A stretch of DNA of 49,752 nt from Candidatus Pacearchaeota archaeon (GCA_019662115.1 JAIFVW010000005.1:1-49752); one strand, 5' to 3'; shown: positions 2,907 to 24,608, numbered from the stretch's first letter. Numbers and translations: made by a program. Notes: generated from the sequence alone by a model not told the origin.

Positions 2907-3749
2907 ATGGTGTATGCTTCAGTTGTCATTCCTGCTTATAATGAAGAAAGATATATCAAAAAAGCTCTTTCTTCCCTGAAAGAACAATCTTACAAAGACT
3001 TTGAGATAATTGTTGTTGATGATGGTTCAACAGACAGGACAAGAGATATAGTAAAAGCTTTCAAGGGCGTAAGGCTGCTTCAGGGCACGCATAAAGGTCC
3101 TGGAGCATCAAGAAATCTTGGAGCTTCAAATGCAAAAGGAGAGATTCTTGTATTTGTAGATGCTGACATGACTTTTGATAAAGATTATCTAAAAGAGTTG
3201 CTAAATCCCTTGAAAAAAGAAAAGAAATTGATAGGAACTAGCCATGGTTATGAATTTGCAACTAATCTGTCAAACAGATGGGCTGCGCTTTGGGGAAAAG
3301 TTCGATCAGATCCAAAAGATTTACATGTAATATTTAGAGCAATAAGGAAAAAAATCTTTCAAGAGAAGGGTGGCTTTGATCCAAAATATGGATATGCAGA
3401 TGATCAAACTCTCTGGTTAAAATATCATTTAAAGCCTAAAGCTGTTCCAGAAGCAATATGTTATCATAGGAACCCAGAAAGTCTAAGAGAAGTCTATCGC
3501 CAAAGTAAATGGATAGGTTCGTCTCTTAGGCTAATATCCTATCCATTTTCATTTCTAAATTATATTCTTCCTCTTTTTTTAGTTCTTGCCTTGCCCTTTG
3601 CAGTCTTATTTCTCTCTGTTCGCAAATCGTATAAAAATAGAAATCTGAGAAGTCTCATACCCTGGATGATCATATTTATGGCTGTGAGATACTGGGGAAC
3701 CCTATCTGGAATAGTACAAAAGGTATACCAAGGAAAAAATACTCGCTAG
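2907..3749 (+). CDS. Glycosyltransferase family 2 with C-terminal membrane anchor
   Basis: 280 aa. SVVIPAYNEERYI...IIVVDDGSTDRT...LVFVDADM, with two hydrophobic helices at the C-terminus. It starts directly after the previous stop. Confidence 0.8.
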   Translation: MVYASVVIPAYNEERYIKKALSSLKEQSYKDFEIIVVDDGSTDRTRDIVKAFKGVRLLQGTHKGPGASRNLGASNAKGEILVFVDADMTFDKDYLKELLNPLKKEKKLIGTSHGYEFATNLSNRWAALWGKVRSDPKDLHVIFRAIRKKIFQEKGGFDPKYGYADDQTLWLKYHLKPKAVPEAICYHRNPESLREVYRQSKWIGSSLRLISYPFSFLNYILPLFLVLALPFAVLFLSVRKSYKNRNLRSLIPWMIIFMAVRYWGTLSGIVQKVYQGKNTR

Positions 3750-6430
3750 CTGGAGTAAAAAGGATGAGGAATATTAAGAGGAAGAATAATGCATGTGCTG
3801 ACATTTTCTGATGATTCATTGCCCATTATGGAAATATTTCCACTTACATCTTTTTTGATAGCAATTTCTCCATACATATAGAGACTTTTTCCTTGTTTAT
3901 CTTTTAAGGAAGATGGAATAATCCTGACTGAGGCACGATTAGGCACAGTCAATTGAGAGGTCAGGGAAATTTTCTCAATAGTAAATATTTGTGTTTGATT
4001 CATGTAAATGGGGCGAGTGATGTATAGGGGAGATGTACAGCTCTCGTTCGTTTCGCTTGGTGTGAATGCAAAAGCGACATTTTCTCCTGAAATCTCTCTG
4101 AAAACCATAACCGGACGTTTTGCCTTTAATGATTCTTTGAAAGAGGAATAATAACTGATAAATAAGTTAATTTTCTCTGCTGTTAATGATGACTTATTGG
4201 AAGGGGATGAAACATTTACATTATCTAGAATAAGTGATCCGATAAATGGATTGACCGAAAGACTTGAAATATGGGTATAGAGATGAGTTCTCCCGTTTAC
4301 AAGATCTTCTACATTTCCAGGCCGAATGAACAAGATAAACCCAACAATCATTAAGGTAGCAATTAAGATAATTAATCCAAGAACGATATACCTTCTCCTA
4401 GGAAACTTTAGTCTTGATATTCGGGATCCAATTGGTAGAAGCATTTCATAAATTTTGTTCTTAATTCTAACAAAAACTATCAATAGTAATAACAACCCAA
4501 GGGAAAATACAATTCCAACACTTATTCCACTAGGCCAATATGATAATCTAACTGTATGACTTCCTGCTGGAATAAATAGTTTCATTCTGCCTAAACTATC
4601 GTTAGTAATTAAGGCTCTATTGCCATCAACTCTTGCATAATATCCGGGCTTAAAGAGAAAATTAAGGGTAATATTATTGCTGGAGGAAAAACTAGTATTA
4701 AATGTAACTCCACTATCAATCATCTTATAGGGAATAGCTGAATCTGAGAAAACATAGCTTCTTGATCCTGGAACAAGAAGAACCAGTACTTTATCCTGAT
4801 ACAATTTGGTTAGATTAGAAAGCTCTGGATGTGAAGGCAAACTATCTCTAGGTATAATGATATACTTCACCCCATATTCTGCAATGCGGGAAATATTCAG
4901 CTTGATATCAGAAACACCAAACCTTGCAACCGGAATGTTTTCACCAGTTAATTTGTCACTAAACGGTTCATATCCTCCAATACTATCTATCCCATAATAA
5001 GTCGCGAAGTCCTGAGATAATAGCGGCGCTTCAGGAAAGTTAGATGTTGGGGTGGAAAACTTGATTCTCTGGGGATTTACAGAGCTGTTTGTAAAGACGC
5101 TTATAACTCTGCCTTCAGATATATTGTATGGCAATTTACCTAAAGGAATGCTGTCTCCATAATAGGCCCATGCAACTGATGTGCTTACTATTATATGATA
5201 GACAATAAGAAGTGCAAAGAAGGTTAAAAAAACTCCAATAACCGTTTTGCTTTTTATTTTTTCAAGCAGAGGAGATGCAGCAATTGCTCCATAAGAGATT
5301 ACAAAGAAGTGAACAAAGAAGGTTATTTTGAATGAAGATGTAAAATTCTTTATAATAGGAAGGAATGCTCCTATAAGATAAATAAGGCCTATGTATCCGA
5401 AACTCAATATTATTGCCAAAATACCCAGCCATAATAAGGGATGAGCCTTTCTAAGAGATTTTCCTCCATATATTTTGAATGAATTAAATAATCCGGCTAA
5501 GAATAATAAGAAAAAAAGTGTTCCAGCATAATAAATATGAATAAATGCGGGAGAGGAGTATGAGAATACATTTGAACTTTTAACAAAAGGGTATACAAAT
5601 AGTGAACCAAGAACAAATTCATGTGGAAACGCAGGCAGGCTTAGTGCATAGTTGATTATCCCATTATTTCCCCTTGCAGAATCTCTTATAACATATAATT
5701 GAGAAATCAAAAGAGGCCCCGCAATGATGAGAGTTATGACTAATGAAATAATATATTTTTCTATATGACTTCCACTCTTTTTCCACTTGTTCTGATATAA
5801 TGTCAGCCATCCATACAACAATTCAAAAAGACATGCAAATGCAAAATATTGTGCGTTCCCCGCATAGAAGTAAATTCCCCTAGTAATCCCAAGCCAAATA
5901 GTAAACTTCAGGCCTTTTTTATTTAGCTTATCATGTAGCAGGAAAATCAATGGCATAAATACAACACCAGGAATAACATAATACCAGCTGGCACTTGCAA
6001 TTAAAACATATCCAGAAAAAACGAATGCAATTCCAGCTAGGAAGGAAATGAGGCTATTCTTGGTCTTTGGAATAAGAAAATAAAACGTGGCAACAAATCC
6101 AGCAACAAGGTGCAATAGAACGAATATCTCAAAAAGTAAAAAGTCGTTGTGAAAGACATAATGTGCTAAAAAGTAAGAAAGAATCATTGGAGGATAAAGA
6201 ACAGCATAAGTTCCAACCTCAAAAATCCTTGATCCCGTATACTGATGAAAGTTTAAGAGAGGAAAACTGCCATGGAAGAGTTGTTTCATCCCTTCAAGAG
6301 TTATAGGAAGGAATTGTGCAAGGTTATCATCTTTGGTAAAGTTGTAAGGATGAACATACTCTATCAATCCAAATAAGGCACAAACTATTACTATTCCAAT
6401 TATAATATAGGTATTTTTGTTCATTTTCAC
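3746..6430 (-). CDS. Large polytopic membrane protein, candidate GT-C glycosyltransferase (YfhO-like layout)
   Basis: 894 aa. About 13 TM helices lie in the first ~420 aa, followed by a ~200-aa soluble block rich in N-x-S/T sequons. Two more TM helices and a ~180-aa C-terminal domain follow. It is last in the long minus-strand glycan operon. The family assignment rests on architecture only. Confidence 0.4.
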   Translation of the reverse strand: MKMNKNTYIIIGIVIVCALFGLIEYVHPYNFTKDDNLAQFLPITLEGMKQLFHGSFPLLNFHQYTGSRIFEVGTYAVLYPPMILSYFLAHYVFHNDFLLFEIFVLLHLVAGFVATFYFLIPKTKNSLISFLAGIAFVFSGYVLIASASWYYVIPGVVFMPLIFLLHDKLNKKGLKFTIWLGITRGIYFYAGNAQYFAFACLFELLYGWLTLYQNKWKKSGSHIEKYIISLVITLIIAGPLLISQLYVIRDSARGNNGIINYALSLPAFPHEFVLGSLFVYPFVKSSNVFSYSSPAFIHIYYAGTLFFLLFLAGLFNSFKIYGGKSLRKAHPLLWLGILAIILSFGYIGLIYLIGAFLPIIKNFTSSFKITFFVHFFVISYGAIAASPLLEKIKSKTVIGVFLTFFALLIVYHIIVSTSVAWAYYGDSIPLGKLPYNISEGRVISVFTNSSVNPQRIKFSTPTSNFPEAPLLSQDFATYYGIDSIGGYEPFSDKLTGENIPVARFGVSDIKLNISRIAEYGVKYIIIPRDSLPSHPELSNLTKLYQDKVLVLLVPGSRSYVFSDSAIPYKMIDSGVTFNTSFSSSNNITLNFLFKPGYYARVDGNRALITNDSLGRMKLFIPAGSHTVRLSYWPSGISVGIVFSLGLLLLLIVFVRIKNKIYEMLLPIGSRISRLKFPRRRYIVLGLIILIATLMIVGFILFIRPGNVEDLVNGRTHLYTHISSLSVNPFIGSLILDNVNVSSPSNKSSLTAEKINLFISYYSSFKESLKAKRPVMVFREISGENVAFAFTPSETNESCTSPLYITRPIYMNQTQIFTIEKISLTSQLTVPNRASVRIIPSSLKDKQGKSLYMYGEIAIKKDVSGNISIMGNESSENVSTCIILPLNIPHPFYSS

Positions 6431-7047
6431 TTAACAATGCCAGAATTTTCCCACAAAGGAACGAACTTTTCATCAGTCATGACAGCATCAAGCTTGAACC
6501 CTAGTTCCTTTATGTATTCTATGTATCGTGGAATGTCTTGAGGCCTTCCCCATCTTTCAGGGCATACAAGACAGGTCTTAAACGGCTTTAATCGATTTAC
6601 AATATCATGTGTAAGAGGTAGAACAGTATTTGTGTCGATCCATACCCAATCAAGTAATGGCTTGGCATCTTTTATCTGAGCTTCTACCATCTCAATTGGC
6701 TCTGCCTCACTGTAACGCACGGCAATCTTTCTTACTCCTTCTTTTCGTGTAGCTCTATAAATGTAAGGAAATTCGACATCAAGCAAGAAATAGTTCCCGA
6801 TATTGTGTTTATTTGCTAAATCTATAATCCTACTTTCATATCCAGCTTCCTTGACGTTGAATATGATAAATGCATGATGGAATTCTCTCAAATAGTCTTC
6901 AAGCCCATCATACTTTGAGGGCTTATCAATAGGATCGTGATTTAACAGCATCTTATCTCCATATCCCCTAATATCAATTTCAACTCCGTATTGAGAGGGA
7001 ACTTTCCTCAAACCTTCAATCGTATTGATTCGATGTCGGATTATCAC
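6427..7047 (-). CDS. GDPD/PI-PLC-like phosphodiesterase (TIM-barrel) family protein
   Basis: 206 aa. MIIRHRINTIEGL...YGVEIDIRGYGDKMLLNHDP matches the glycerophosphodiester phosphodiesterase pattern HR...E-D-R...HD. It has a 4-nt overlap with the downstream gene. Confidence 0.4.
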   Translation of the reverse strand: MIIRHRINTIEGLRKVPSQYGVEIDIRGYGDKMLLNHDPIDKPSKYDGLEDYLREFHHAFIIFNVKEAGYESRIIDLANKHNIGNYFLLDVEFPYIYRATRKEGVRKIAVRYSEAEPIEMVEAQIKDAKPLLDWVWIDTNTVLPLTHDIVNRLKPFKTCLVCPERWGRPQDIPRYIEYIKELGFKLDAVMTDEKFVPLWENSGIVK

Positions 7048-7081: not shown

Positions 7082-7792
7082 TTACTGCCCGTAGTAGGCT
7101 TTTCCGCCATGTTTTCTTAGATAATGCTTGTCATGGAGATATGACGGAATAGGCTTGATTTTCGAATTAAGCCCAAGTGTTATGAAATTCATTTCAGCAA
7201 CTTTTTCAAGAGCTACCGCGTTCCTTAGTGCTTCCGATAATGTTCTTCCCCATGCAAAAAGCCCATGATGCTGTAAAAGGCATGCTGGAACTTCCAAAGG
7301 ATTGATATTGTTTTTCTTGAATGTTTCCACAATTGCTTTTCCCAAGTTAGCCTCATAGTCTTTTTCCACAAGCTCTTTCTTCAATACAGGAACGACTGGA
7401 ATAGGTCCGTAAAAGTAGTCTGCATGAGTAGTTCCCAAACAATCAATAGGAACTCCCGCCTGTGCAAAGCTCGAAGAATAATTAGCATGTGCATGTACAA
7501 TTGCACAAACATCCTTGAAATTCCTATAAATTTCCAGGTGAATTGGAGTATCAACACTAGGTTTTCTTGCTCCCTCTAAAGGATACCCTTGTATATTGAC
7601 CACAACAACATCCTGAGGGGTTAGAGAAGGATAAGGAACGCCGCTTGGCTTAATGGCCACACATGACCTGCTTTTGTCAATACCACTTACATTTCCTAGA
7701 GTAAGTGATGCCTCTTCTCTTCCTACAAGCCCAAGGCGAACGATCTCTTTATTCGCCCTCATGACATCGAATCTCAACTCCTTTAAAATCAT
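7082..7792 (-). CDS. araD: L-ribulose-5-phosphate 4-epimerase (class II aldolase/adducin family)
   Basis: 236 aa, collinear with E. coli AraD as I recall it. Shared blocks are WGNVS-like LGNVSGIDKSR..VAIKPSGV, PSVDTPIH, IVHAHANY, GTTHADYFYGPIP, HHGLFAWG and the C-terminal LHDKHYLRKHGGKAYYGQ. Confidence 0.85.
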   Translation of the reverse strand: MILKELRFDVMRANKEIVRLGLVGREEASLTLGNVSGIDKSRSCVAIKPSGVPYPSLTPQDVVVVNIQGYPLEGARKPSVDTPIHLEIYRNFKDVCAIVHAHANYSSSFAQAGVPIDCLGTTHADYFYGPIPVVPVLKKELVEKDYEANLGKAIVETFKKNNINPLEVPACLLQHHGLFAWGRTLSEALRNAVALEKVAEMNFITLGLNSKIKPIPSYLHDKHYLRKHGGKAYYGQ

Positions 7793-7855: not shown

Positions 7856-8575
7856 CTATTGCTTAAGCTTCTTTTTCAATTCAAATGTAAACTTGATTGT
7901 TCTTTTGATAAATTTAAATCTGGCTTTCATTCCAGTATTCCATGCACTTTTACCATGAATCCTTTTCCCAAAAAACACAGGTAATCTCTTAATTTCATAG
8001 CCATTTTTTCTTGCAAGATAATAAGAATACAGATCGAATGAAAAGTCGTGTGGAGGATCTCTCATAAGTTTAAGGAAAGAATGATGGAACAGGTTAGGTT
8101 GGGCGTTTATATCATACAGTTTTTGCCCAAGGACAAAAGTTTCAAAGATAGACATTCCAAGAGTATTGATTAGAGTGTCTAGTATTGGTCTTCCGTATCT
8201 TTTGCCTTTAACATATGTCTTCTGTGGGTTTTTGCTATTTTTCATTAAATTATATGCTTTAATAGTATCTTGTGGATCAGTCTGAAGATCAGCATGAGTC
8301 CAGCAAAGAAACTCTCCCTTGGATTCCTTTAGACCATTATATATGGAAATACCATAACCTCTCTGGGTAGTAAAGAGATTTTTCATGAATCTATTCTTTT
8401 TAGCGTATTTTGCAAGTTCATCTCTTGTTTTGTCCTGGCTTCCTGAATCTTCTACAAAAATAACCTCAATATCAATTTTTTTGGCTATCTCTGAATATTT
8501 TTCAACAATTAATTTAATATTCTTCTCCTCATTGAATACAGGTAGCACAATAGAGATTTTAGGAATAGTTTTCAA
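7856..8575 (-). CDS. Polyprenol-phosphate glycosyltransferase (GT2, DPM1/GtrB/ArnC-like)
   Basis: 239 aa. ISIVLPVFNEEKNI...VIFVEDSGSQDKT...THADLQTDP follows the short soluble DPM1-like GT2 layout. Confidence 0.7.
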   Translation of the reverse strand: MKTIPKISIVLPVFNEEKNIKLIVEKYSEIAKKIDIEVIFVEDSGSQDKTRDELAKYAKKNRFMKNLFTTQRGYGISIYNGLKESKGEFLCWTHADLQTDPQDTIKAYNLMKNSKNPQKTYVKGKRYGRPILDTLINTLGMSIFETFVLGQKLYDINAQPNLFHHSFLKLMRDPPHDFSFDLYSYYLARKNGYEIKRLPVFFGKRIHGKSAWNTGMKARFKFIKRTIKFTFELKKKLKQ

Positions 8576-9383
8576 AGTATTTGTTCCAGAGAGCTTGTTC
8601 GTGCTTGCTCATATTTATTTTGTTTAAATCTCCTAATTTATAGAAATAGGAAATCTTTTCAAATTCATGAAATTCTTGAGGCGTTCCCCATCCAACTAGA
8701 AGATCCACATCAAAAATGCAGCTTTTCTTGCCAAGCAAATTTAAGGCTAAAGGCAAATTGTCAAGGTAATATTCATTGTTTGTCTTTATGTTATCACTCA
8801 TCATTTTTCTAATTCCGTCATAAAGGATTTTCTTGGAACGGATCCAGAAGGTTGCAGCCACAACGTGATCATTAAAGGGATTGTCAGAAATTGGAACTTT
8901 GACGCTCATATCCTTTATTGTCTTTCCATCATGATCAAGAACGGCATATCCCCACGCTTTAGGGTTTGCAGAAATACGCTGGTCTTTTGTAAACGTCCAT
9001 AAAATACAGTCGTATTTTGGATCTTTCTTCAAAGATTCGTATTTATTTTCATCATAAACAAAACCCATGTCACATCCAGCAATAAATACTTCATCATCAT
9101 CTTTAATATATTGTTCTGCACAGAATATGCTTGCTCCTCCAAGAAGATCTTTATCTACAGTTATTATTGCATTAGGAATTTTCTCTTTTATTGCCTTGTG
9201 AATGTGAAATTCATCAATATGCTCCTGTCGAACAACAAAAATCCATGTATCGCTCTCTGGCAAGCAGTCTATTACTTTCCATATCATAGGATCTCCATCA
9301 ATGGGGATAAGAGGTTTAGGGAGTATATATCCAGCTTCAGAAAATCGTTTTCCTCTTCCCGCCATTGTAACGAGATTTGCCAT
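8559..9383 (-). CDS. Sugar-phosphate nucleotidyltransferase-like protein
   Basis: 274 aa. The N-terminal MAGRGKRFSEAGYILPKPLIPI is the G-x-G-x-R...K-P pyrophosphorylase signature. It has a 17-nt overlap with the downstream GT2. Confidence 0.55.
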   Translation of the reverse strand: MANLVTMAGRGKRFSEAGYILPKPLIPIDGDPMIWKVIDCLPESDTWIFVVRQEHIDEFHIHKAIKEKIPNAIITVDKDLLGGASIFCAEQYIKDDDEVFIAGCDMGFVYDENKYESLKKDPKYDCILWTFTKDQRISANPKAWGYAVLDHDGKTIKDMSVKVPISDNPFNDHVVAATFWIRSKKILYDGIRKMMSDNIKTNNEYYLDNLPLALNLLGKKSCIFDVDLLVGWGTPQEFHEFEKISYFYKLGDLNKINMSKHEQALWNKYFENYS

Positions 9384-9398: not shown

Positions 9399-10052
9399 CT
9401 ATGCTTTATAAAGCTTACCCGTTAAAGGAAAGGATTTTACCAAAACAGGAATATTAGAATCCAGGGAAGACTTTCTATAAAGGGCAAGTGAGTCAAAAAA
9501 GAACCTTTCCCCTACATTTTTGCCTATCTCTCTGGAAACGGATTCAAATTTGTTTTTATCTATAGAGGAGATTGTAATATGAGGGATCCATCCTTTTCCG
9601 ATATAAGGGAAACCATATTTATTGATATTATCCTTTTGTTCTGCAGAGAATTTTGAATATGCCTCTGATTGCTCATTGAAGAGTATATTTTTATTCAAGC
9701 TTTTAATTCTTGCAATCACCTTCAATTGTAACTCGCGCAACCTATCGCTGTCAGGCTTGGAAAAACCATAGGTAAAAGTATGGCCTTCTGTTAAGGCATC
9801 ATCATAAAAGACATTCTTGTGATCAAGTGAAATGGAAATCTTAGGTGTTAAAGATGCAATGCTTTTGATAATAGAGAGAACTTCATTTACTTTATTTTTT
9901 TCAAATGATGTTACAATTAATGTTGAATGGGGATGATGAGTAAGGTACTTCTGATCTCCTGCAATCTTATAGACTATCTTCTTTTCAGCAAGAATTCTTT
10001 TCTGCATTCCTTCATCTGGAATCAATGCAATAAAAAAATGCTCAATTTCCAT
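9399..10052 (-). CDS. 2H phosphoesterase superfamily protein (LigT-like)
   Basis: 217 aa with two H-x-T/S-x motifs about 115 aa apart (HPHSTLIV and IPHITISS). It has an 11-nt overlap with the upstream 833-aa fusion gene. Confidence 0.55.
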   Translation of the reverse strand: MEIEHFFIALIPDEGMQKRILAEKKIVYKIAGDQKYLTHHPHSTLIVTSFEKNKVNEVLSIIKSIASLTPKISISLDHKNVFYDDALTEGHTFTYGFSKPDSDRLRELQLKVIARIKSLNKNILFNEQSEAYSKFSAEQKDNINKYGFPYIGKGWIPHITISSIDKNKFESVSREIGKNVGERFFFDSLALYRKSSLDSNIPVLVKSFPLTGKLYKA

Positions 10053-12543
10053 TAATCATCAGCTCACGATAGTTATCGAGAGAGGCGTTGATATAAAGTT
10101 TTCTATCTTTAGTCATTACAAACTTAATTGGCTCGTTATGGCTAATCTTGATCATATGCCATTTGCTTTGAGGTATGCCGAGATACCATCCTATAAAGTT
10201 GCGAATTGGAACATTATGTGTTGAAACAAGAATGCTTTTTCCAGGTATGGAAGGTGTTTCTTTAAGAAAATCTAGGAATCTCTTTAGAACCTCTTGATTA
10301 TTCTCCCCATCTGGAAAATGAGCATCTTCTTCTCTCTTCCATGCCTCGATAATTTTAGGATGATTTTCTATAAGATAGTTAATGTCCTTTCCTTCCGCAT
10401 CTCCATACTTCTGTTCCTTCAATCTATCATCATAAGTTATTTCATTGCTGATTAGAGAGGCAGTATCCTTAGCTCTCCTCATAGGTGAAGAATAAACCTT
10501 GTCTGCTCTAATAGTCTGCAGTTTCTTTGCCTCTCCTTTAGATAGAGCGATAATTGAAGGATCCCTTCCCTGCCCTAAAAACACTCCTGGCTTGTTTTTT
10601 GCAGTTTTGGCATGCCTTAAAAGTACTATTTCTGTAGAATCATCATAAAACATCTTCTTGAATTGCTCTTCGAAGTCTTGAAGAAATGCTTGTACATTCT
10701 TCGTCAGATATTCCTGCTTAAGCTTTCTTCTCTCCCTCTTTGCCTTTAAAAGAATAGAAGCAAAACTTCTGTGTTTATCCTGATTTTTTGGAAAAAGCGT
10801 AAAATACTTCTTGAATAGCTCTTTTACCTCATAGTGGTGATTGCTCTTATAATATAACTTGACAAAATTAGACATTGTAAACTTGATTACTTGATATGCC
10901 CTTTCAACTCTGTCATAATCCTCCATTTTCTTATACTCCTTTATTTCCTCAACATTCTTTCCCTTGAACTCATATCTTCTGTAGGAGGTATGCTCTTTAG
11001 ATATCTCATTTGATAGTTCCTGAACTCCTCTTCTTGAATTAATGAAATTCTCTGGTTCAAGGCGTAAAACTGGATAAATGCTCGCCAATGGCTTTTTGAA
11101 GTAGATTTTAGAGCTTTCCCATCCAAAACAAGTAAAGGGACTTTTCATGACATGCTGTTTATGGGACTCAATATCATAAATCATTAGATGAAATACGATT
11201 CTATCCTTAGGAAATTTAAGAGGTCCAAAAGTGGTGTTAACTACAACCTGATATCCATATGTAGATTCGAGATATTGCCTATGTGATTCAAATCTTTCAA
11301 CAATGCTATCAAACTTCTCTCTTGTCAATTTGTCTACAATAATTACTACATCTATATCATTAATTCCTTTAAGCTTCTTTCCTGTCGCAAATGACCCAAC
11401 AATAGATCCAGATTCAATAAATGTAAATGAATCAAGAGTTGTAGGAATATAATACAATATATCATGCCTTAATCTCTTGCTAATGTCACTATACCTTGCG
11501 CTTGTCTTTAACTCCATAAAGGATTCTACAGGATCATGTGATGCAAGAATACCAGAAGAGGAAACAATATAGTTGGCATCAATCCTTCCTATATTGGTTG
11601 GCTTTACCCCTCCATCAAAAATGATGTCGAAATTATGATTTTTCTGCAGCTTTCTTACTTCTTTTAATAATTCCAAAGATCTAGGATCAAAGAGCTGTCC
11701 AGACTTTCCAATCTCTCTTATCCCCATTACCTGTACAAATGAAAGTTTGCTAAGATAGGGCTCTATTGAGTTTATATCATCCTGCATTGTTAATGCAATG
11801 CCTGCTTTCTTCCCATATTTCTCAATCAAATCAATTACATCTGAAAGAGGTTCATTTAGATTAGGATGAACAATAATGGTATCGACTTTATTATGGATCT
11901 GTTCTATCCATAGAGTAGGAGTTTTTGACATTATATGTATCATCTTTTGAATCCTCCATACTGTGTCAATTCGATCCATAACAGAGAGGTCAACAGGAGA
12001 TGCATCCTTCTTGATTGTAGAGTCGATAATATCAATATGTATGAAATCAGCATAGTTCTTTATTTTTTCATATATCTTTTCAACTGACTCCTCTTTGTTT
12101 AGATAAACTGCAACTCCTACTCTTTTAACGAAATCAAATGTGATTTTTCTGTGAGTGGCATAACTGGCCATAAATACCATTCCGGCTGTAATGAATCTTA
12201 AGGTAGAATAACTAAAAGGAAGGCTTTGGGCTAGAGCCTTAATTAGTACTAGATTAAGAACAAGTGCAATAGTAGAAATAATTAAGAATAATCCAAATGT
12301 TCTTGCGTTCTTGGAAGAAGGAACCTTAAAATTAAGCTTCGCATTTAGGAAAAAGCTCAATAATACTCCTCCAGCAAATCCAATCCCGATTCTAAGCAAT
12401 AAAGGCACTGTACGAGCAGCAAGCTGATTTACTATAATAATTTCAAGAAGTACAGAGAAGAAGCCTATAGCAATATAGTTTAGAAGATATCTAAATCGAT
12501 AATACCAGAAGTGCAATGTCCTTAAATTACCTCGAAATACCAT
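10042..12543 (-). CDS. Four-domain fusion: GtrA-like membrane module / ribulose-phosphate 3-epimerase-like barrel / Pol-beta nucleotidyltransferase / histidine phosphatase
   Basis: 833 aa. Residues ~1-135 form 4 TM helices ending HRKITFDF (GtrA layout; nt ~12139-12543). Residues ~140-345 read ADFIHIDIID, IHIMS, VHPN and DIIFDGGVKPTNIGRI, which parallel the RPE blocks HFDVMD, VHLM and EVDGGVKVNNIGEI (nt ~11509-12126). Residues ~365-470 carry GSIVGSFATGKKLKGINDIDVVIIVD (nt ~11134-11451). Residues ~640-833 carry LLRHAKT...SSPMRRAKDTA...VSTHN (nt ~10045-10626). Confidence 0.6.
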   Translation of the reverse strand: MVFRGNLRTLHFWYYRFRYLLNYIAIGFFSVLLEIIIVNQLAARTVPLLLRIGIGFAGGVLLSFFLNAKLNFKVPSSKNARTFGLFLIISTIALVLNLVLIKALAQSLPFSYSTLRFITAGMVFMASYATHRKITFDFVKRVGVAVYLNKEESVEKIYEKIKNYADFIHIDIIDSTIKKDASPVDLSVMDRIDTVWRIQKMIHIMSKTPTLWIEQIHNKVDTIIVHPNLNEPLSDVIDLIEKYGKKAGIALTMQDDINSIEPYLSKLSFVQVMGIREIGKSGQLFDPRSLELLKEVRKLQKNHNFDIIFDGGVKPTNIGRIDANYIVSSSGILASHDPVESFMELKTSARYSDISKRLRHDILYYIPTTLDSFTFIESGSIVGSFATGKKLKGINDIDVVIIVDKLTREKFDSIVERFESHRQYLESTYGYQVVVNTTFGPLKFPKDRIVFHLMIYDIESHKQHVMKSPFTCFGWESSKIYFKKPLASIYPVLRLEPENFINSRRGVQELSNEISKEHTSYRRYEFKGKNVEEIKEYKKMEDYDRVERAYQVIKFTMSNFVKLYYKSNHHYEVKELFKKYFTLFPKNQDKHRSFASILLKAKRERRKLKQEYLTKNVQAFLQDFEEQFKKMFYDDSTEIVLLRHAKTAKNKPGVFLGQGRDPSIIALSKGEAKKLQTIRADKVYSSPMRRAKDTASLISNEITYDDRLKEQKYGDAEGKDINYLIENHPKIIEAWKREEDAHFPDGENNQEVLKRFLDFLKETPSIPGKSILVSTHNVPIRNFIGWYLGIPQSKWHMIKISHNEPIKFVMTKDRKLYINASLDNYRELMINGN

Positions 12544-12587: not shown

Positions 12588-13259
12588 CTACGAAGTGATC
12601 ACAAAAACAATTCCGCCAACACCATATCTTGTTATCTCTTCATATGTAATCTTCTGCGTTTTGGTAAATTCTTCAAATGCAGCTCTTACTCCCTTTTTCT
12701 TGTCCCCAGCATAATTGAAATAATCATCAAGTATCAATACAGTTCCCTTACCAATAATCGGCTTTAGAAAGTTAAATGCCTCTTTTGAGGAAGAGTAGAG
12801 ATCGCAATCCATCATGACAATTGCAGCTTTGGATATACCATGTGCTTTAGCTCCCTTTTTCAGCGTTTCCTGGAAAAAACCTTTTACTAGCTTTACCTCT
12901 GGAAATTCCTTAAACCTATTCCTTATTACAGAAAACTTTGTTGAGAAGTCAAAGGAGGTATAAAATGGGTGTTCATCTCCTTTCTCAGGCTTCATTCCTT
13001 CAAAAGAGTCAAATCCATAGAACTTCATAGGGGTTTTTCCTATTTTTCTCCAGTAAGTTGCAGCTCCCTTCAGGCTTGTTCCTTCATAGACGCCAAATTC
13101 AAGATAGTCTCCCTTTACTCCCTCAATTTCCTTATAGAATAAGAATTTCTTGAGAACGTCATGCTTCTCAAAATTATGTATCATGCTTGGAGATATATAA
13201 GAATTAAACCTTATGTATAGGTCCTGTGCTGCTAGGAAGATCTTATGGAGAAAGTCCAT
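12588..13259 (-). CDS. TylF/macrocin-O-methyltransferase-like SAM-dependent methyltransferase
   Basis: 223 aa. GDYLEFGVYEGTS...FYGFDSFEGMKP...VMMDCDLYSSSKEAFNFL...LILDDY matches the TylF family pattern. A TTTATATA box lies ~25 nt upstream at ~13279-13286 on the minus strand. Confidence 0.7.
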   Translation of the reverse strand: MDFLHKIFLAAQDLYIRFNSYISPSMIHNFEKHDVLKKFLFYKEIEGVKGDYLEFGVYEGTSLKGAATYWRKIGKTPMKFYGFDSFEGMKPEKGDEHPFYTSFDFSTKFSVIRNRFKEFPEVKLVKGFFQETLKKGAKAHGISKAAIVMMDCDLYSSSKEAFNFLKPIIGKGTVLILDDYFNYAGDKKKGVRAAFEEFTKTQKITYEEITRYGVGGIVFVITS

Positions 13260-13289: not shown

Positions 13290-14849
13290 CTAACTTGAAA
13301 TAATCTTTCTCTTAATAGCCCTAACAATTTCCCAATCATGCCTATCCAAAGACTTAGTGGCAAAAAGAATGCCTACATAAATAACACAAAGTACTATCGC
13401 TATCAAAACCGAGTTAATTATATTAATGCTGATTTTACCATGAATAAATATGACTGCAATGGCACATACAAGTCCAGCGGCCAAGATATTGATCATCTTT
13501 CTTCGCAATGGAAATATTCCGGTATTCTTGTATGCCTCTATTACAAACAAAAGGCTAAAGACACTAACTGAAATCAATGTCGCTATTGCAGCTCCATTAA
13601 TTCCTAAACTATTATCAATAGACCCTATTCTAGGCCTAGGAATTAATGCTATATCAAGAATTATGTTTATTATCCAGGCGACTATGCCATTGGTAAGTAT
13701 TGTTCTAGACTTCCCTAGCGTGTAAATAAGTCGGTTTGATACAGCTGTGAGAGCAGTAATGAGGGTTCCAAGAGTAAGTATTTGAAGTGCAGTTGAGGCC
13801 TTAATATATTCACTTCCCCAAATTGCTAAAATTGTCCTTTCTGGAAAGACAATGATAAATATTACCAAAGGAAGGTTTATCATAAGAATCCATTTAGAAA
13901 CCTGCTTACTTAGCTCCTTAATAACCTCATAGTTTTTCCTTGCATATTCTTTGGTAATAAGAGGGAAGAAGAGCTGCATGAAAAGATCCGGTACTATATT
14001 TAGAAGCATTGCCAAAGGGAGCGCCGCGTTGTAGAGTCCAACTTCTGCTGGGCTCTTGAAGTATCCAAGCATGAATGAGTCTACCCAGTAAAAAGCCATA
14101 TAAACTACGCCAAAAAAGAGCATAGGACCAGAATAGGAAAGAAATTCAGCTCGAAGCCTCTTTCTTTGATTCTTTTCAGGGAATTCTTTGAAGAATATTT
14201 CTGGAAGATAAGCCTTACATGCAAAATAAGATGCAATAAGTATTGCAACTATGGAAAGAACATAAGAATAGATGATCGCACTGCTTGAAACGCTTATTAC
14301 CAATAATAGCAGTATGGCGATCACTTTTACAACATTTTGAAGAATATTAAATATAAAAGAATACCATCCTATCTTTTCATAGGCTCTTAGAAAATCAAGA
14401 AATATGTTTCCTAATATTGAAAGAGGAAGAGCAATACTGAAAACCTTAAGATAAATTATTAAGACTGAGGAATGAAAGATCCCAAGAGCAATACTATCTG
14501 CAAAAACATAAAGCAAAATTCCCGCAATTATGGAGCTTACTGCTGTGGTTGCCAGAGACCAGTATCTAAGGTAGGAAATTTTCTTATTTTCCTTATTTGC
14601 CCTATAGATTGCTACATACCTTACAATTCCTTCATTGAATCCAAAAGTGGCAACAGTGATAAATATGCCAAGCACTGCAACGGCCAGGGAAAATAGGCCG
14701 TATTCTTGTGGACCAAACTGCCGTGCAATTATAATCCTGTAAATATAAGATAATAGCTTTGATAAGACTACTCCTATCAACACAACAAATGATGATTTTG
14801 CGAGTAATTTTAGAGAACTGTCAACATTTGACGAAGTCTTTTTTTGCAT
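13290..14849 (-). CDS. Oligosaccharide/polysaccharide flippase (MOP superfamily, Wzx-like)
   Basis: 519 aa with about 14 hydrophobic helices and the layout of a polysaccharide biosynthesis protein. It is first in the minus-strand operon running 14849 -> 3746. Confidence 0.75.
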   Translation of the reverse strand: MQKKTSSNVDSSLKLLAKSSFVVLIGVVLSKLLSYIYRIIIARQFGPQEYGLFSLAVAVLGIFITVATFGFNEGIVRYVAIYRANKENKKISYLRYWSLATTAVSSIIAGILLYVFADSIALGIFHSSVLIIYLKVFSIALPLSILGNIFLDFLRAYEKIGWYSFIFNILQNVVKVIAILLLLVISVSSSAIIYSYVLSIVAILIASYFACKAYLPEIFFKEFPEKNQRKRLRAEFLSYSGPMLFFGVVYMAFYWVDSFMLGYFKSPAEVGLYNAALPLAMLLNIVPDLFMQLFFPLITKEYARKNYEVIKELSKQVSKWILMINLPLVIFIIVFPERTILAIWGSEYIKASTALQILTLGTLITALTAVSNRLIYTLGKSRTILTNGIVAWIINIILDIALIPRPRIGSIDNSLGINGAAIATLISVSVFSLLFVIEAYKNTGIFPLRRKMINILAAGLVCAIAVIFIHGKISINIINSVLIAIVLCVIYVGILFATKSLDRHDWEIVRAIKRKIISS

Positions 14850-14933
14850 TCTATTAGAGAGAAAGTATGTTTTTATTTGTTACTAATCATCTTATGCAGG
14901 CAACTTTATATACGAACAATACTTGCCTTGCCG

Positions 14934-16748
14934 ATGGCTGAAGAGCAAAAAAAAGAAACTTCAAACTATCTAAACTCTTTTATAGATTTCATTTTTTCAG
15001 ATGATGAAAGAAGATGGCTTATTTTGATATTTATCTTTGGATTCATTCTAAGATTTATAGCAGTTATGAATAATTCTCCTGTGGCTGACGAAATGGTTCA
15101 TGGAAGCCATGCTCTTGGTATATCAACACTGCGTCCTCTAAGCACAATTACTCAGGGCCCAATCTGGTTTTACTTAACTGACATATCATACAGAATATTT
15201 GGTGTTCATCTATGGAGTGGAAGAGGACTTTCATTATTATTTGGATCTTTTTCAATACTTCTTGTCTATCTTGTTTCACATTTATTTTTTGACAAGAAGG
15301 TTTCTCTGGTGGCCGCATTCTTGTTTGCAATATCCCCTTTTCAGATAATGTGGGCTAGGATATATATGGACGAGTCCTTATTGTTTTTTATCCTTTTAGC
15401 GACGTATTTGTTCCTTCGGGATTACAGGACAAAGGGATATATTACTCCATTAAGTGCCTTGTTCCTTGGGATAGGTATATTGATAAAAATAATATCAGGA
15501 GTCTTTATCATAGTATTTTCACTCTTTGTCCTGATCAATATCTACAACAATAGAAAAGACAATAAATTGTTCAAAAAGAGCATTAAGAATGCAGTTTACT
15601 TCTTTATCATAATACTTATTTCACTAATTCCATTGCTGGCGTACAATTACTTCCTTTACAAGTCAAAGGGAATACTTGATCTTCCATTTGCAATGTACTT
15701 AGGGGTAAATACTCAAGTCTATCAAGGCTCAGGACTGGCTCACGGATCTGGCTTCCCTATAGGGCAGCTTCCAGGCAATCTCAAGGTAATATTATTCGAC
15801 TATTTCATAAAAGATGAATTAATCCTTTTCATACTTTTCATCCTAGGGCTAATTATTTTTATAAGGGAAATAAAGAAAAATGCATTTGAGAAGGCGTTTA
15901 TATTGACATTGTTTGGATTCTCTCTTATAGCTATCGCCGCATCCATTCTTCTCAATACGCATTATACATATTTCGTAGCTATTTTTGCCATGATTGGAGC
16001 TCCAGTCATACCTTTAATTGCAAGGAAAATCAGCGCAAGGCATGTGAAAAATACAGTTATAGTGATTCTTATAGCTATAGCGATTTTCAATATTTATCAT
16101 ATGTGGGACGTTCTATCAAGCAAGAGCGCAACAGAGAAATTAAGGGATTTTGCAATATCAAATATAAAGGACACTGACCTTGTGATAGTCGACTCTAGAA
16201 TATACAGAGGAAACACCGCATGGATGTTCAACGATAAAGCATATTTAGATGCAAGTATTCTCTCTAGCGCTATTCAATATCTTAACAGCCTTAATGGCAC
16301 GGCGGCATCTGTCCATACATATTTTGTTGAATGTGCAATTGATGATTGCGGATGGGGAAACATAAAAGACAGCCCTGATGTAAACAGCTCTATGGAGATG
16401 CTTGTTGACACTTTCAAGAACCTTTCAAAGAACTCTTTCGCAATAAAAGGAGGAGGCAAAGACAGTCAGGAATACGATTCCTCTAAGTTGGACCAATATA
16501 TAGTATATGACACGTATGTTGCTCTCAATCCCCAGATAATATATCTTGCTCAGCAAAATCACAACTTCTTCTTTTATGAGATTCCAAGAAATAAAAATCC
16601 TGAGAAGGCATTTGACTATTACATAGTAGATGGAGCATCCGGAGATCTTTTGAACTTTATAGCCTATACTGTATTATACCTATTGATTGCGCTAGCAGCA
16701 CTCTCACCAATATATGTAATTTACATTCTTTACAAGATCAAACATTAA
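14934..16748 (+). CDS. GT-C glycosyltransferase (ArnT/PMT-like, family 39/83 type)
   Basis: I prefer the ATG at 14934 (MAEEQKKE...) over the track's non-ATG start at 14844, because a CTTTATATA box sits at 14904-14912. The protein is multi-TM, has a first-loop acidic motif PVADEMVHG, and ends in a C-terminal soluble domain plus a final TM helix. Confidence 0.65.
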   Translation: MAEEQKKETSNYLNSFIDFIFSDDERRWLILIFIFGFILRFIAVMNNSPVADEMVHGSHALGISTLRPLSTITQGPIWFYLTDISYRIFGVHLWSGRGLSLLFGSFSILLVYLVSHLFFDKKVSLVAAFLFAISPFQIMWARIYMDESLLFFILLATYLFLRDYRTKGYITPLSALFLGIGILIKIISGVFIIVFSLFVLINIYNNRKDNKLFKKSIKNAVYFFIIILISLIPLLAYNYFLYKSKGILDLPFAMYLGVNTQVYQGSGLAHGSGFPIGQLPGNLKVILFDYFIKDELILFILFILGLIIFIREIKKNAFEKAFILTLFGFSLIAIAASILLNTHYTYFVAIFAMIGAPVIPLIARKISARHVKNTVIVILIAIAIFNIYHMWDVLSSKSATEKLRDFAISNIKDTDLVIVDSRIYRGNTAWMFNDKAYLDASILSSAIQYLNSLNGTAASVHTYFVECAIDDCGWGNIKDSPDVNSSMEMLVDTFKNLSKNSFAIKGGGKDSQEYDSSKLDQYIVYDTYVALNPQIIYLAQQNHNFFFYEIPRNKNPEKAFDYYIVDGASGDLLNFIAYTVLYLLIALAALSPIYVIYILYKIKH

Positions 16749-17550
16749 GATATTCTCTCAGCGCTTCCTTCCAAGATCTTAGGTAAAAAACATTCGAAAC
16801 CATAGCTTCTGAAGCAGATCGTTTAGGGCCTGGAATATCTCTGGCACTTGCAGGCGTAATAACTGATCTTGACCCAGTTAATGATTTAACCTCATTTACA
16901 ATATCTAAAGCTGATGCAGCCCCATCATTTACAATGTGAACTATTCCGCTCATATTTTTTTCAATAGACTCTCTAAGTGCTAAAAAGAAGTCCTTGCTGT
17001 ATGTTGGGGATCCATATTGGTCTGAACTTGCTTTAACATCTTCTCCTTTAGATGTTTTTTCTATCATTATATCAAATCCTCCCTTCCTATCTTTGGTAGA
17101 AAGCCCTCCAAAAAGCCACCCTGTTCTTACAACAAGATTATCAGGTGAGGACCAGCGAGCTACTATCTCTGCAAGATACTTAGTCTGTCCATATATATTT
17201 TGAGGATCTGGATTGGTCACCTCATTGAATTTGTCATGCAAAGATCCATTAAAAACAGCGCCGCTTGAAACTATTATCATCGGAATTTTTGCATCAGTGG
17301 CTTCTTCGGCTATATTATTGATCCCAATAACATTAACTCTATAGGCATGCATTGGGTCTTTCTCACTATCTCTTAGGTTTACTGAGGCAAGATATAGTAT
17401 TCCAGAAGGATTGTATTTTTCAAATGCCCTTTTAATGTGGTCTCTTTTTAGAACGTCAAGTTCATGCCTAGAAACTTTTATTCCAAAAGGAATGTTTCTT
17501 CCAATTAACCCCTCTCCACCACAAATAAGCAAGCGAGAGATGTCAGCCAA
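16738..17550 (-). CDS. NDP-4-keto-sugar reductase (RfbD-like, SDR family)
   Basis: 270 aa. LLICGGEGLIGRNI is the Rossmann motif and YGQTKYLAE is YxxxK. It has an 8-nt overlap with the upstream C-methyltransferase. Confidence 0.65.
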   Translation of the reverse strand: MADISRLLICGGEGLIGRNIPFGIKVSRHELDVLKRDHIKRAFEKYNPSGILYLASVNLRDSEKDPMHAYRVNVIGINNIAEEATDAKIPMIIVSSGAVFNGSLHDKFNEVTNPDPQNIYGQTKYLAEIVARWSSPDNLVVRTGWLFGGLSTKDRKGGFDIMIEKTSKGEDVKASSDQYGSPTYSKDFFLALRESIEKNMSGIVHIVNDGAASALDIVNEVKSLTGSRSVITPASARDIPGPKRSASEAMVSNVFYLRSWKEALREYLNV

Positions 17551-18775
17551 TTTCTTGTACCTCCAGTTTTGGAAATGGTATTATTACTCTTGCGGATTCC
17601 ACATTTTCCTTAAGTTTCTTTATAAGATGATCCTTATAGTTCCACGATAATAGCAAAAATGTTCTTTTTTCATTTCTATCAAGTGCATTCCATGATTTTA
17701 TAGGAACGTGCATTCCTGGAGAATACTTTCCCTGCTTTAATGGGGTGTCGTCAATCATATAATCTATGTCATCTTTTCCAATCTTGCAGTAATTAGTTAT
17801 TACTATCCCTCTCGCAGGAGAGCCAAGAGCAATTAGCTTTCCATAAGATCTCTTTTCATTTTCTATTATCTGTTTAAGTTGTGTCTTGAAGTTCTTCACC
17901 TTATTCTCAACCTGGTCATAAATAGCACGGTTGTTAAGACCCTTTTCCTTCTCCTCATCTAGTATTGAGATCATTTCCTTAGAATGCTCTCCAGCATCCT
18001 CTTTCCTCTTGGCAAATATCCTTAGAGATCCTCCCTGGGTTGGGATTTTCTCAACATCAACTATCTTCAGTCCAGCTCTATCAAATGTCGATATTAGAGA
18101 GTGTAGAGAAAAGGAATAAACATGCTCATGATAAATTGTATCAAACTCTCCCTGAAGAACGGTTTCAAGAGCATATGCTCCCTCCATAACTAGAGTTCCA
18201 TCTGGACTAAGCGTCTTTTTAACTCCTCTTAATAGATCGACAACGTCTGGAGTATGAGGAATAACATTCAAGGCTACAATGATATCAAAAAGGCCCTGGG
18301 TTTTTACAATCTCTTCAGCAGTTCTTGTATTAAAGAAATCAGTAAGAGTTTCTATTCCTTTCTCCCTGCTTAGCTGCGCAAGATTCTTGGCAGGATCAAC
18401 CCCAAGAAGATTATCTGTATGTTGTTTCAGGAAACCTAAGAGAGTAGCGTCATTTGATCCTATCTCTAAGATGCTTGTGTCGGAGGTTATGTCAAATCTC
18501 TTGTTTAAAGTGTCAGCTACATCTTTAAGATGATTTATGTTGGAAACCGACGCCGAAGAAAGATGAAGATAGTTTGAAAACAACTCTTCAGGTGGAACTA
18601 TCTCTTCAATCTGAACAAGAAGGCATTTAGGACAGTATGCAAGGTTTAAAGGATACTTTTTCTCTTTTTGTATTTCAGATTCATCTAGAAAAGCATTTAC
18701 AGGAGGCATACCTCCCAGTTCCAAGAACCTTTTTAGAGTTCCTTCACCACACGCACGACACAATATTTCATTCAT
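17543..18775 (-). CDS. NDP-hexose C-methyltransferase (TylCIII/EryBIII-like)
   Basis: 410 aa. The N-terminal zinc-ribbon is CRACGEG...YCPKCLLVQIEEIVPPEELFSNYLHLSS. The central SAM domain reads ILEIGSNDATLL. The C-terminal block LGSPARGIVITNY...IDDTPLKQGKYSPGMHVPI is typical of the C-methyltransferase C-terminal domain. Confidence 0.7.
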   Translation of the reverse strand: MNEILCRACGEGTLKRFLELGGMPPVNAFLDESEIQKEKKYPLNLAYCPKCLLVQIEEIVPPEELFSNYLHLSSASVSNINHLKDVADTLNKRFDITSDTSILEIGSNDATLLGFLKQHTDNLLGVDPAKNLAQLSREKGIETLTDFFNTRTAEEIVKTQGLFDIIVALNVIPHTPDVVDLLRGVKKTLSPDGTLVMEGAYALETVLQGEFDTIYHEHVYSFSLHSLISTFDRAGLKIVDVEKIPTQGGSLRIFAKRKEDAGEHSKEMISILDEEKEKGLNNRAIYDQVENKVKNFKTQLKQIIENEKRSYGKLIALGSPARGIVITNYCKIGKDDIDYMIDDTPLKQGKYSPGMHVPIKSWNALDRNEKRTFLLLSWNYKDHLIKKLKENVESARVIIPFPKLEVQEIG

Positions 18776-19548: not shown

Positions 19549-19608
19549 GATAAATAACGCAAAAATGGGTGCAAAATAGGATTTATAAATAATTGTATGT
19601 TAATTTAA

Positions 19609-24537: not shown

Positions 24538-24608
24538 TGCGCGGTACGGGAATCGAACCCGTGACAGCTGGTTGGAAACCAGCGGTTATGCCATTTAACT
24601 AACCGCGC
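24538..24608 (-). tRNA. tRNA-Gly (anticodon UCC)
   Basis: Hand-folded 71-nt cloverleaf: GCGCGGT TA GTTA AATGGCA TAAC C GCTGG TTTCCAA CCAGC TGTC ACGGG TTCGATT CCCGT ACCGCGC A. All four stems are perfect and no CCA is encoded. Confidence 0.85.

Follow-up and report, generated by a model that had tools for sequence, protein, structure and literature searches.

A seven-gene cassette around a four-domain archaeal fusion protein probably encodes a new route to rare-sugar surface modification

Why should an archaeon join a lipid-carrier membrane module and three sugar-phosphate enzymes in a single polypeptide, and what might these parts make together? The question is raised by an open reading frame (ORF) of 833 codons on the minus strand of a 49,752-nucleotide stretch of DNA from a Candidatus Pacearchaeota archaeon (GCA_019662115.1 JAIFVW010000005.1:1-49752; the whole stretch is referred to here as the window). 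Our analysis confirms that this ORF encodes a real, uncharacterised archaeal protein of that composition. The fusion belongs to a cassette of seven genes and nine domains that is widespread in bacteria and DPANN archaea, and by which a rare sugar is probably made for the cell surface along a new route.

The fusion protein and its domains

The ORF starts with ATG and runs without interruption from 10042 to 12543, in keeping with the single unbroken frame claimed in the preliminary description of this DNA. The four domains proposed there are all matched by Pfam profile hidden Markov models at scores exceeding the gathering scores, with structure prediction and Foldseek in agreement, though through weak matches in the nucleotidyltransferase region. 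The fusion and its parts are:

10042..12543, minus strand: four-domain fusion, 833 residues (ORF, Pfam and model)
12130..12543, minus strand: GtrA/DPMS-type four-helix membrane module, residues 1-138 (Pfam PF04138)
11494..12129, minus strand: ribulose-phosphate-3-epimerase-like (RPE-like) (beta/alpha)8 barrel, residues 139-350 (Pfam PF00834)
10636..11493, minus strand: divergent Pol-beta nucleotidyltransferase (NTase) carrying a beta-hairpin and a helical C-terminal domain of its own, residues 351-636 (PF01909)
10042..10635, minus strand: branch-1 histidine phosphatase (HisPhos), residues 637-833 (Pfam PF00300)

The full-length AlphaFold model of the fusion has a mean pLDDT of 90.7 and a pTM of 0.81, and since the latter is reached by a protein of four to five domains, the model suggests that the domains hold a defined mutual arrangement rather than lying as beads on a string. 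Residue conservation was read from a family alignment of 63 sequences, in which no part of the protein is as strongly conserved as the NTase region. An NCBIfam scan of the fusion reached no equivalog cut-off, the names given in the source databases are generic, and literature searches, which covered few subscription-journal papers, returned no description of the architecture or of the gene set; the earlier remark that no characterised protein was known with this architecture is upheld.

The membrane module matches GtrA_DPMS_TM (PF04138) at residues 23-136 with 45.5 bits against a cut-off of 26.1, and its modelled helices span residues 18-42, 48-70, 76-105, and 112-135. Stretches rich in Lys and Arg lie at the N terminus, in the loop at 67-82, and in the segment after the fourth transmembrane helix (TM4), a positive-inside pattern from which both termini of the module, and with them the enzyme domains of the fusion, are predicted to be cytoplasmic.

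The barrel matches Ribul_P_3_epim (PF00834) at residues 158-332 (84.7 bits; cut-off 21.1), with Foldseek matching it to solved structures such as 2fli, 1tqj, and 7b1w (TM-score ~0.8 relative to the target, E ~1e-11). The motif correspondences quoted in the preliminary description are borne out when the fusion is aligned by HMMER with RPEs and histidine phosphatases of solved structure. In the RPE alignments ADFIHIDIID of the fusion pairs with ADNIHFDVMD, IHIM with VHLM, and FDGGVKPTNIGRI with IDGGVNPYNIAEI of 3inp. Residues H169, D171, D174, H203, D310, G311, and G312, which supply the metal ligands and the catalytic Asp pair of the H-x-D-x-x-D, second-His, and D-G-G pattern, are invariant (53/53 sequences), and the Met of the HxDxMD motif of RPEs is replaced by Ile or Val. 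The domain nevertheless misses every RPE and AlsE equivalog cut-off of NCBIfam by far, scoring 78.4 against 212.6 for TIGR01163 (rpe) and 100.1 against 165 for NF004076. These low scores, together with the membrane tether and the coding of the domain within a glycan locus, suggest a divergent paralogue with its own substrate or role. In the model the first barrel strand begins 5 residues past TM4. Action of the barrel on a lipid-linked substrate had been argued from this short tether and was dropped on geometry: the tether attaches to the N-terminal face of the barrel, hence it gives no reason to put the active site at the membrane.

NTP_transf_2 (PF01909) is recognised at residues 381-445 with 25.0 bits, above its cut-off of 21.0, and among 49 sampled family members it is detected in 36, and Polbeta in 15. 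The family alignment shows conservation of G383, S384, D396, D398, and D457, the G-S, D-x-D, and third carboxylate typical of the superfamily, whilst the other conserved side chains of the domain are mostly basic (R504, R505, R522, K562, K602, and several His), which would suit an anionic, phosphorylated acceptor, though we only infer this. A PDB sequence search with the middle region of the fusion found no relative. Residues 346-637, modelled separately with a pLDDT of 92, give weak Foldseek matches that are all Pol-beta-superfamily NTases, the best being the minimal NTase 2rff (E 0.011, probability 0.98), with HalB, AadA, AAD(9), and MNT antitoxins among the further matches (all E ≥ 0.01). 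The nearest structural matches to the NTase and its C-terminal domain are the aminoglycoside O-nucleotidyltransferases AadA/ANT(3'')(9) and AAD(9) and minimal NTases of the MNT type, although these matches are weak, with a TM-score of ~0.4 relative to the query. The groups that AadA and AAD(9) nucleotidylate are hydroxyls of sugars.

Searched exhaustively, 1.84 billion representative proteins yielded only 271 clusters with the NTase domain, most of them proteins of 470-500 residues with the NTase at the N terminus, and NTase-HisPhos is the commonest architecture. All 49 sampled NTase-domain proteins carry a histidine phosphatase, and on this distribution the NTase-HisPhos pair is judged the ancestral unit. 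The phosphatase itself matches His_Phos_1 (PF00300) at residues 639-804 with 101.4 bits (cut-off 21.7), and its catalytic residues R643, H644, R690, E710, and H776 are invariant in 50/50 sequences. It lies nearest to CobC, PspA, and the riboflavin-pathway HFP, with 9mmh, 4ij5, and 6e4b as PDB matches, yet reaches none of the named NCBIfam equivalogs (CobC, dPGM, PspA), the best being TIGR03162 (CobC) at 82.9 bits against 162.9. Since the RPE-like domain and the phosphatase both fail all equivalog cut-offs, Rpe and CobC would be the wrong names for them.

Fusion states, distribution and the cassette

A homologue search with the fusion returned 66 proteins. Four-domain homologues of ~840 residues share 45-49% identity with it and, where an organism label is given, come from Nanoarchaeota, Pacearchaeota, and Woesearchaeota; other forms are proteins of 638 residues that lack the phosphatase and NTase-HisPhos proteins of 478 residues. 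Homologues of ~1000 residues carry an additional 125-145 residues at the N terminus, which constitute a second GtrA domain (82 bits). A second GtrA occurs in many archaeal versions, either as this extra N-terminal domain or as a small gene with its end overlapping the start of the fusion (L001 9615-10007, L003 9588-10007, and L005 10001-10450, where L numbers denote the loci fetched for comparison); the version in the window has one GtrA only. This recurrence hints that the GtrA module works as a pair.

A genome scan limited to one genome per species added 40 NTase-domain loci from DPANN archaea and many bacterial groups, the latter including Planctomycetota, Phycisphaerae, Bacteroidota, Pelagibacterales, Gemmatimonadota, Acidobacteriota, Verrucomicrobiota, and Marinimicrobia. 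One carrier among the Planctomycetota, Limnoglobus roseus PX52, is in culture and has the cassette at ~8.255-8.278 Mb of NZ_CP042425.1. Frame analysis of the loci fetched confines the single-ORF state to DPANN; the bacterial loci, from at least eight phyla, always have two adjacent genes, GtrA-RPE and NTase-HisPhos. Full-length four-domain proteins in bacteria, which tblastn coverage had indicated, were refuted by the same analysis, with two genes found everywhere. Judged by these frames, the four-domain ORF is a DPANN-specific fusion of the neighbouring genes GtrA-RPE and NTase-HisPhos. The window, going only by its best hits and its low G+C, likewise resembles archaeal DNA of the DPANN type. 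The preliminary description had spoken of four normally separate functions joined in one ORF. The single ORF stands, whereas the separateness does not, the functions being normally encoded outside DPANN by two adjacent genes that each already hold a pair.

That two or more genes were wrongly joined by assembly or annotation is hardly credible. The region does consist of two genes in all bacterial loci, but chimeric assembly is excluded by the recurrence of the single ORF: 8 DPANN genome loci have it, as do more than 40 independent metagenomic proteins, which stem from different samples and assemblers. Furthermore, the sequence spanning the junction is conserved, and the model packs the domains against one another with the pTM given above.

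Synteny was assessed by tblastn of the window's neighbouring proteins against 47 loci. Almost everywhere that the contig is long enough, GtrA-RPE and NTase-HisPhos are accompanied by five further genes, so that the fusion, which the preliminary description treated by itself, is part of a seven-gene cassette that had been missed. The gene order is stable: GtrA-RPE, NTase-HisPhos, 2H phosphoesterase, NTP-transferase, GT2, and a protein of ~200 residues, with an AraD-like gene at either end. In the window these genes lie close together, the spacing between neighbours ranging from -17 to +63 nt with three overlaps, and besides the fusion they comprise:

9399..10052, minus strand: 2H phosphoesterase, cyclic-phosphodiesterase-like (Pfam 2_5_RNA_ligase2)
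8559..9383, minus strand: nucleotidyltransferase resembling pyrophosphorylases of nucleoside diphosphate (NDP) sugars, termed NTP-transferase here (Pfam NTP_transf_3)
7856..8575, minus strand: small soluble GT2 of 239 residues, a polyprenyl-phosphate glycosyltransferase catalytic domain (PDB matches)
7082..7792, minus strand: AraD-like L-ribulose-5-phosphate 4-epimerase with the class II aldolase fold (Aldolase_II, 148.9 bits)
6427..7047, minus strand: conserved cassette protein of ~200 residues, 206 in the window (co-location in nearly all loci)

The start of the 2H gene overlaps the stop of the fusion by 11 nt, and its product retains both H-x-S/T motifs, with an orthologue exceeding the DUF1045 gathering score. 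DUF1045 is a 2H family of carbon-phosphorus lyase operons without phnP (PMC3266647, PMC3840354), and is predicted to open 5-phosphoribosyl-1,2-cyclic phosphate (PMC3840354). The family profile of the NTP-transferase matches 4evw (5.5e-17), GlmU, HddC, and mannose-1-phosphate guanylyltransferases far better than IspD. In nearly all loci the GT2 occurs beside the GtrA module. Its best PDB match is 5mlz, the dolichyl-phosphate mannose synthase (DPMS) of Pyrococcus furiosus, with which it aligns over the full length of the catalytic domain (residues 6-224 against 24-241, E 1e-9), followed by GtrB (sll0501) and ArnC, all of them polyprenyl-phosphate glycosyltransferases; a hydrophobicity scan of the GT2 detected no window resembling a transmembrane segment. 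The AraD-like protein passes the NCBIfam model NF006047 (AraD) with 280 bits against a cut-off of 257.

The protein of ~200 residues has 4396 homologues, all of them lacking a functional name and a Pfam domain proper to the family, and its invariant polar residues are H5, N8, E23, D25, R27, H37, K66, E71, R111, S113, E114, E116, and D138. Three leads on its nature came to nothing. A distant RPE-type barrel received an hhalign probability below 1%, no better than the controls; a phosphodiesterase of the PLC/GDPD type, guessed from its HR..ExDxR..HD motifs, was left unsupported by negative profile searches; and PF14251 (PterinBD-DUF4346), to which a few family members are fused, offers no functional hint, being itself a domain of unknown function.

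Fusions between the genes differ from group to group. The GtrA and RPE-like domains share one gene in each locus where both are present, and NTase and HisPhos are fused in nearly all loci. The 2H domain is joined to this pair as 2H-NTase-HisPhos in Planctomycetota and as NTase-HisPhos-2H in Bacteroidota, with HisPhos-2H occurring in a DPANN archaeon, and an NTP-transferase-GT2 fusion is present in Woesearchaeota, where it was seen in L002 and L008. These patterns define three modules, namely a membrane-epimerase, an NTase-phosphatase-2H, and a pyrophosphorylase-GT2 module, and together with the archaeal four-domain fusion they constitute Rosetta-stone evidence as to which enzymes act jointly.

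Proposed function and its alternatives

One further gene of the window bears directly on the role of the cassette:

3746..6430, minus strand: 894-residue polytopic membrane protein, YfhO-like (GT-C type; hhalign against YfhO)

This gene follows the cassette, its start overlapping the preceding gene by 4 nt, and encodes a protein with ~11 hydrophobic segments. Alignment of its family with a YfhO pair by hhalign gives a probability of 97.1% (E 5.7e-11, 408 columns), and relatives adjoin the cassette in L010, L014, L037, L038, and L040. The only Pfam match of the protein itself is a sub-threshold one to DUF748, and its long C-terminal part (~450-894) is mostly non-membrane. YfhO is the extracytoplasmic transferase of CsbB/GtcA/YfhO, an established three-component system (PMC7389260), and by this resemblance the 894-residue protein is probably an extracytoplasmic transferase as well. 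In most other loci with enough flanking sequence a polytopic protein of 550-900 residues stands beside the cassette, belonging to the YfhO-like group, PMT_2, DUF6798, or unassigned families. That these flanking proteins come from several families fits a picture in which a conserved unit makes the donor and the transferases that go with it vary with the acceptor. The DUF6798-containing proteins are polytopic, measure ~620-650 residues, and lie in or beside the cassette of some Woesearchaeota and Nanoarchaeia (L002 13872-15824; L009 14360-16225); standing where YfhO-like or PMT_2 proteins stand elsewhere, they may represent an unrecognised GT-C family.

We consider it slightly more probable than its opposite that the cassette, within a three-component extracytoplasmic glycosylation system, is the half that supplies the precursor and loads the carrier, with pentulose 5-phosphates of the pentose-phosphate pathway as its feed. 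It would most likely make a pentose-type sugar linked to polyprenyl or dolichyl phosphate for the decoration of the cell surface. The preliminary description had already envisaged a membrane-tethered pathway from a pentulose phosphate to a surface modification, which accords with the AraD-like, NDP-sugar-pyrophosphorylase-like, DPMS/GtrB-like GT2, and YfhO-like GT-C neighbours. The individual steps, their order, and the product sugar are inferred from family chemistry, and the substrate channelling also suggested there is a conjecture too. The AraD-like enzyme and the RPE-like domain would interconvert pentulose 5-phosphates, converting D-ribulose 5-phosphate (D-Ru5P) or D-xylulose 5-phosphate (D-Xu5P) to L-Ru5P and possibly L-Xu5P, either or both of the L-sugars being the likely non-housekeeping products. 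The Pol-beta NTase, the 2H protein, the ~200-residue protein, and the phosphatase would lead from there to an anomeric phosphate through nucleotidylated and/or cyclic-phosphate intermediates, with the 5-phosphate removed by the histidine phosphatase either at that stage or after transfer to the lipid. The pyrophosphorylase-like enzyme would then form the NDP-sugar, and the membrane-less GT2, docking with the GtrA/DPMS module in the manner of a type-III DPMS split in two, would load the sugar onto the lipid phosphate. Flipping of the product would fall to the GtrA module, either unaided or paired with a second copy of GtrA, and a YfhO-like or PMT_2-like protein would attach the sugar to a surface polymer or protein. 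The P. furiosus DPMS consists of a GT2 domain joined to a GtrA-like transmembrane domain, and may flip its own product (PMC12992685).

A more specific version of the middle steps, in which neither a kinase nor a mutase is needed to shift the phosphate to the anomeric position and a pentofuranose or ketopentofuranose donor arises by an undescribed route, we regard as coherent chemistry yet rather unlikely. The NTase would nucleotidylate the sugar, the ~200-residue enzyme would cyclise the resulting diester to a cyclic phosphate, the 2H protein would open the ring regiospecifically to the anomeric phosphate, and the histidine phosphatase would strip the 5-phosphate, after which the pyrophosphorylase and the split DPMS would load the sugar onto the lipid carrier. 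These four proteins are assigned to phosphate relocation because they are the only enzymes left for that step.

Several observations weigh against the glycosylation reading. No kinase, mutase, or aldose-ketose isomerase is recognisable in the cassette, which leaves the passage from a 5-phosphate to an anomeric phosphate unexplained, and the ~200-residue protein was negative in Pfam, NCBIfam, and two PDB profile searches, with no fold assigned. The fold matches of the NTase are weak, even the best having the E value of 0.011 noted above. A PDB sequence search with the GtrA module produced no match to a DPMS membrane domain, hence the notion of a split DPMS stands on the Pfam family assignment and on analogy. 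Additionally, the GT-C-like proteins that flank the cassette come from several unrelated or unassigned families and are missing from some loci with long flanks, and an ordinary hexose, with no relation to the pentulose enzymes, might instead be what the NTP-transferase and GT2 work on.

The same enzymes could conceivably serve a phosphodiester-linked decoration with pentulose or pentitol phosphate, akin to teichoic acid, in which the NTP-transferase makes a cytidine diphosphate (CDP) derivative, CDP-5-pentulose, the Pol-beta domain acts like LicD or fukutin in transferring the pentulose phosphate, and the phosphodiesterase-like proteins and the phosphatase edit or recycle. In favour of such a pathway, CDP-alcohols serve LicD/FKRP-type enzymes of the Pol-beta fold as donors of alcohol phosphates, and enzymes of the AbpA/Mnp1/HS5.18 type likewise cytidylylate ketose phosphates. 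The chemistry is moreover established, with CDP-6-D-fructose as an example (PMC10918830), and the NTP-transferase does match NTP_transf_3 and, weakly, inositol-1-phosphate and methylerythritol phosphate cytidylyltransferases. We nevertheless hold it unlikely, given that the profile of this enzyme is much nearer to sugar-1-phosphate pyrophosphorylases than to IspD, and that a DPMS/GtrB-like GT2, in some genomes fused to the NTP-transferase, implies an anomerically activated NDP-sugar. A LicD-like or fukutin-like phosphotransferase as the identity of the NTase domain was rejected, the LicD Pfam signal being present in 0/49 family members at E values up to 1 and no LicD, FKRP, or fukutin structure appearing in the top 50 Foldseek matches. 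Nor is a reductase conserved in the cassette.

A soluble product is a less probable alternative still, and one to which we give little credence. By a logic like that of GpgS and GpgP, the GT2 would glycosylate a phosphorylated acceptor, for instance a pentulose 5-phosphate, from an NDP-hexose supplied by the NTP-transferase, and the phosphatase would dephosphorylate the result. What is formed would be either a compatible solute of the glycosyl-pentulose kind or a metabolite resembling a nucleotide, and the membrane module would be no more than an anchor. This would make a phosphate-moving enzyme unnecessary, and it draws on a weak match of the GT2 to glucosyl-3-phosphoglycerate synthase and on the presence of the histidine-phosphatase-family GpgP (4pz9) among the structural matches. 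However, the best matches of the GT2 are lipid-phosphate glycosyltransferases, the GtrA-RPE fusion is obligate with the GtrA duplicated in many archaeal versions, and the cassette is surrounded by surface-glycan genes and regularly adjoined by polytopic GT-C-like proteins, the YfhO-like one lying in the window operon itself. A soluble pathway would also leave the NTase and the 2H protein without a role.

Neighbouring genes, known systems and significance

Upstream of the fusion, the window holds three genes with a possible bearing on surface glycans:

12588..13259, minus strand: TylF-type O-methyltransferase, directly upstream of the fusion (Pfam TylF, 66.7 bits)
13290..14849, minus strand: Wzx/MurJ-type flippase, accessory and variable (Pfam Polysacc_synt, 99.9 bits)
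14844..16748, plus strand: PMT_2/ArnT-like GT-C membrane glycosyltransferase (Pfam PMT_2, 60.1 bits)

The TylF-type gene is accessory and not conserved with the cassette, recurring only in L034 and L042. The flippase and PMT_2 genes are divergent, and their annotated starts overlap by 6 nt. PMT_2 proteins flank the cassette also in L001 and L005, and the PMT_2/ArnT-like protein is possibly a second candidate for the acceptor-side transferase, using the same or another lipid-linked donor. Beyond it, positions 16738-20751 on the minus strand encode an RmlD-like reductase, a sugar C-methyltransferase (Methyltransf_13/14), a GT2, and an epimerase/dehydratase of the short-chain dehydrogenase/reductase type, a block whose content suggests the making of a branched or methylated deoxysugar. 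Between ~24500 and 27000 gene orientation changes from mostly minus to mostly plus, with the minimum of the cumulative GC skew near 26 kb. The change, which adjoins three tRNA genes (24538-25749) and a lone 5S rRNA gene (26729-26843), could be a replication-related strand switch. In one Woesearchaeota contig (L002 380-8264) the cassette is accompanied by a set of the phosphonate-biosynthesis type, comprising a phosphoenolpyruvate mutase, a thiamine-pyrophosphate-dependent decarboxylase-like protein, an NTP-transferase, and a CDP-alcohol phosphatidyltransferase-like protein, suggesting that phosphonate is added to the same surface glycans.

Amongst known systems, the three-component extracytoplasmic glycosylation systems GtrA/GtrB/GtrC of Shigella and Salmonella and CsbB/GtcA/YfhO of Bacillus, Listeria, and Staphylococcus (PMC7389260) likewise encode together a GT2 of the polyprenyl-phosphate type, a GtrA-family module, and a GT-C-type transferase. 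Whilst those systems use a ready-made UDP-hexose, the cassette adds six conserved enzyme domains not present in any described system, namely the RPE-like, AraD-like, Pol-beta NTase, histidine phosphatase, and 2H esterase domains and the ~200-residue protein; its GtrA is covalently joined to an epimerase barrel, and its GT2 lacks a membrane anchor of its own. The type-III DPMS of P. furiosus (5mlz) similarly combines a GT2 catalytic domain with a GtrA-like four-helix membrane domain, but does so in one polypeptide, whereas the cassette divides the two halves between separate polypeptides, with three other enzymes attached to the membrane half. The RPE-like and AraD-like enzymes share folds and catalytic and metal residues with Rpe and AraD, the former differing from housekeeping Rpe in its membrane tether and in being encoded in a glycan locus.

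A likeness in concept is offered by the pentofuranose systems that depend on phosphoribosyl pyrophosphate (PRPP), represented by ORF12-15 of Citrobacter youngae and by DPPRS/Rv3807c/DprE1-E2/Rv3789/Emb-Aft of mycobacteria (PMC11127046). As set out by Kelly et al. 2024, these place a pentose on polyprenyl phosphate, remove the 5-phosphate with a phosphatase, optionally epimerise the sugar, flip it, and transfer it with a GT-C enzyme (PMC11127046). A pentose-phosphate source, loading onto a lipid, dedicated removal of the 5-phosphate, and a GT-C enzyme are thus shared features. The differences lie in the enzymes employed. Loading in the PRPP systems is by a UbiA-type enzyme, whereas in the cassette it would apparently be by a DPMS-like GT2 and an NDP-sugar, and no UbiA-family phosphoribosyltransferase was found among the window ORFs scanned (278-24499) or in the precomputed Pfam labels of L001-L005. 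The phosphatase is of the HAD or PAP2 type in the former and of the histidine-phosphatase type in the latter, and epimerisation, carried out by redox enzymes on the lipid-linked sugar in the PRPP systems, would apparently proceed in the cassette by RPE/AraD chemistry on ketose phosphates.

The addition of pentoses outside the cytoplasm has been explained only recently, and by the PRPP/UbiA route only (PMC11127046). If the reading favoured here is true, the cassette would constitute a second, unrelated route to a pentose donor, leading from pentulose phosphates and using a DPMS-like loader. Among its carriers are SAR11/Pelagibacterales, freshwater Bacteroidota, Planctomycetota, and DPANN archaea, microbes that are abundant and little understood. 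The surface glycans of such microbes are thought to shape susceptibility to phage and, in DPANN, attachment to the host. The cassette also provides a testable context for the small Pol-beta NTase family (~270 clusters) and for the ~200-residue family with its more than 4,000 members, and the cultured carrier Limnoglobus roseus PX52 makes experiments possible. Should the phosphate-relocation route prove true, two unannotated families would gain new activities, and SAR11, Bacteroidota, Planctomycetota, and DPANN archaea would have in common a new rare-sugar surface modification.

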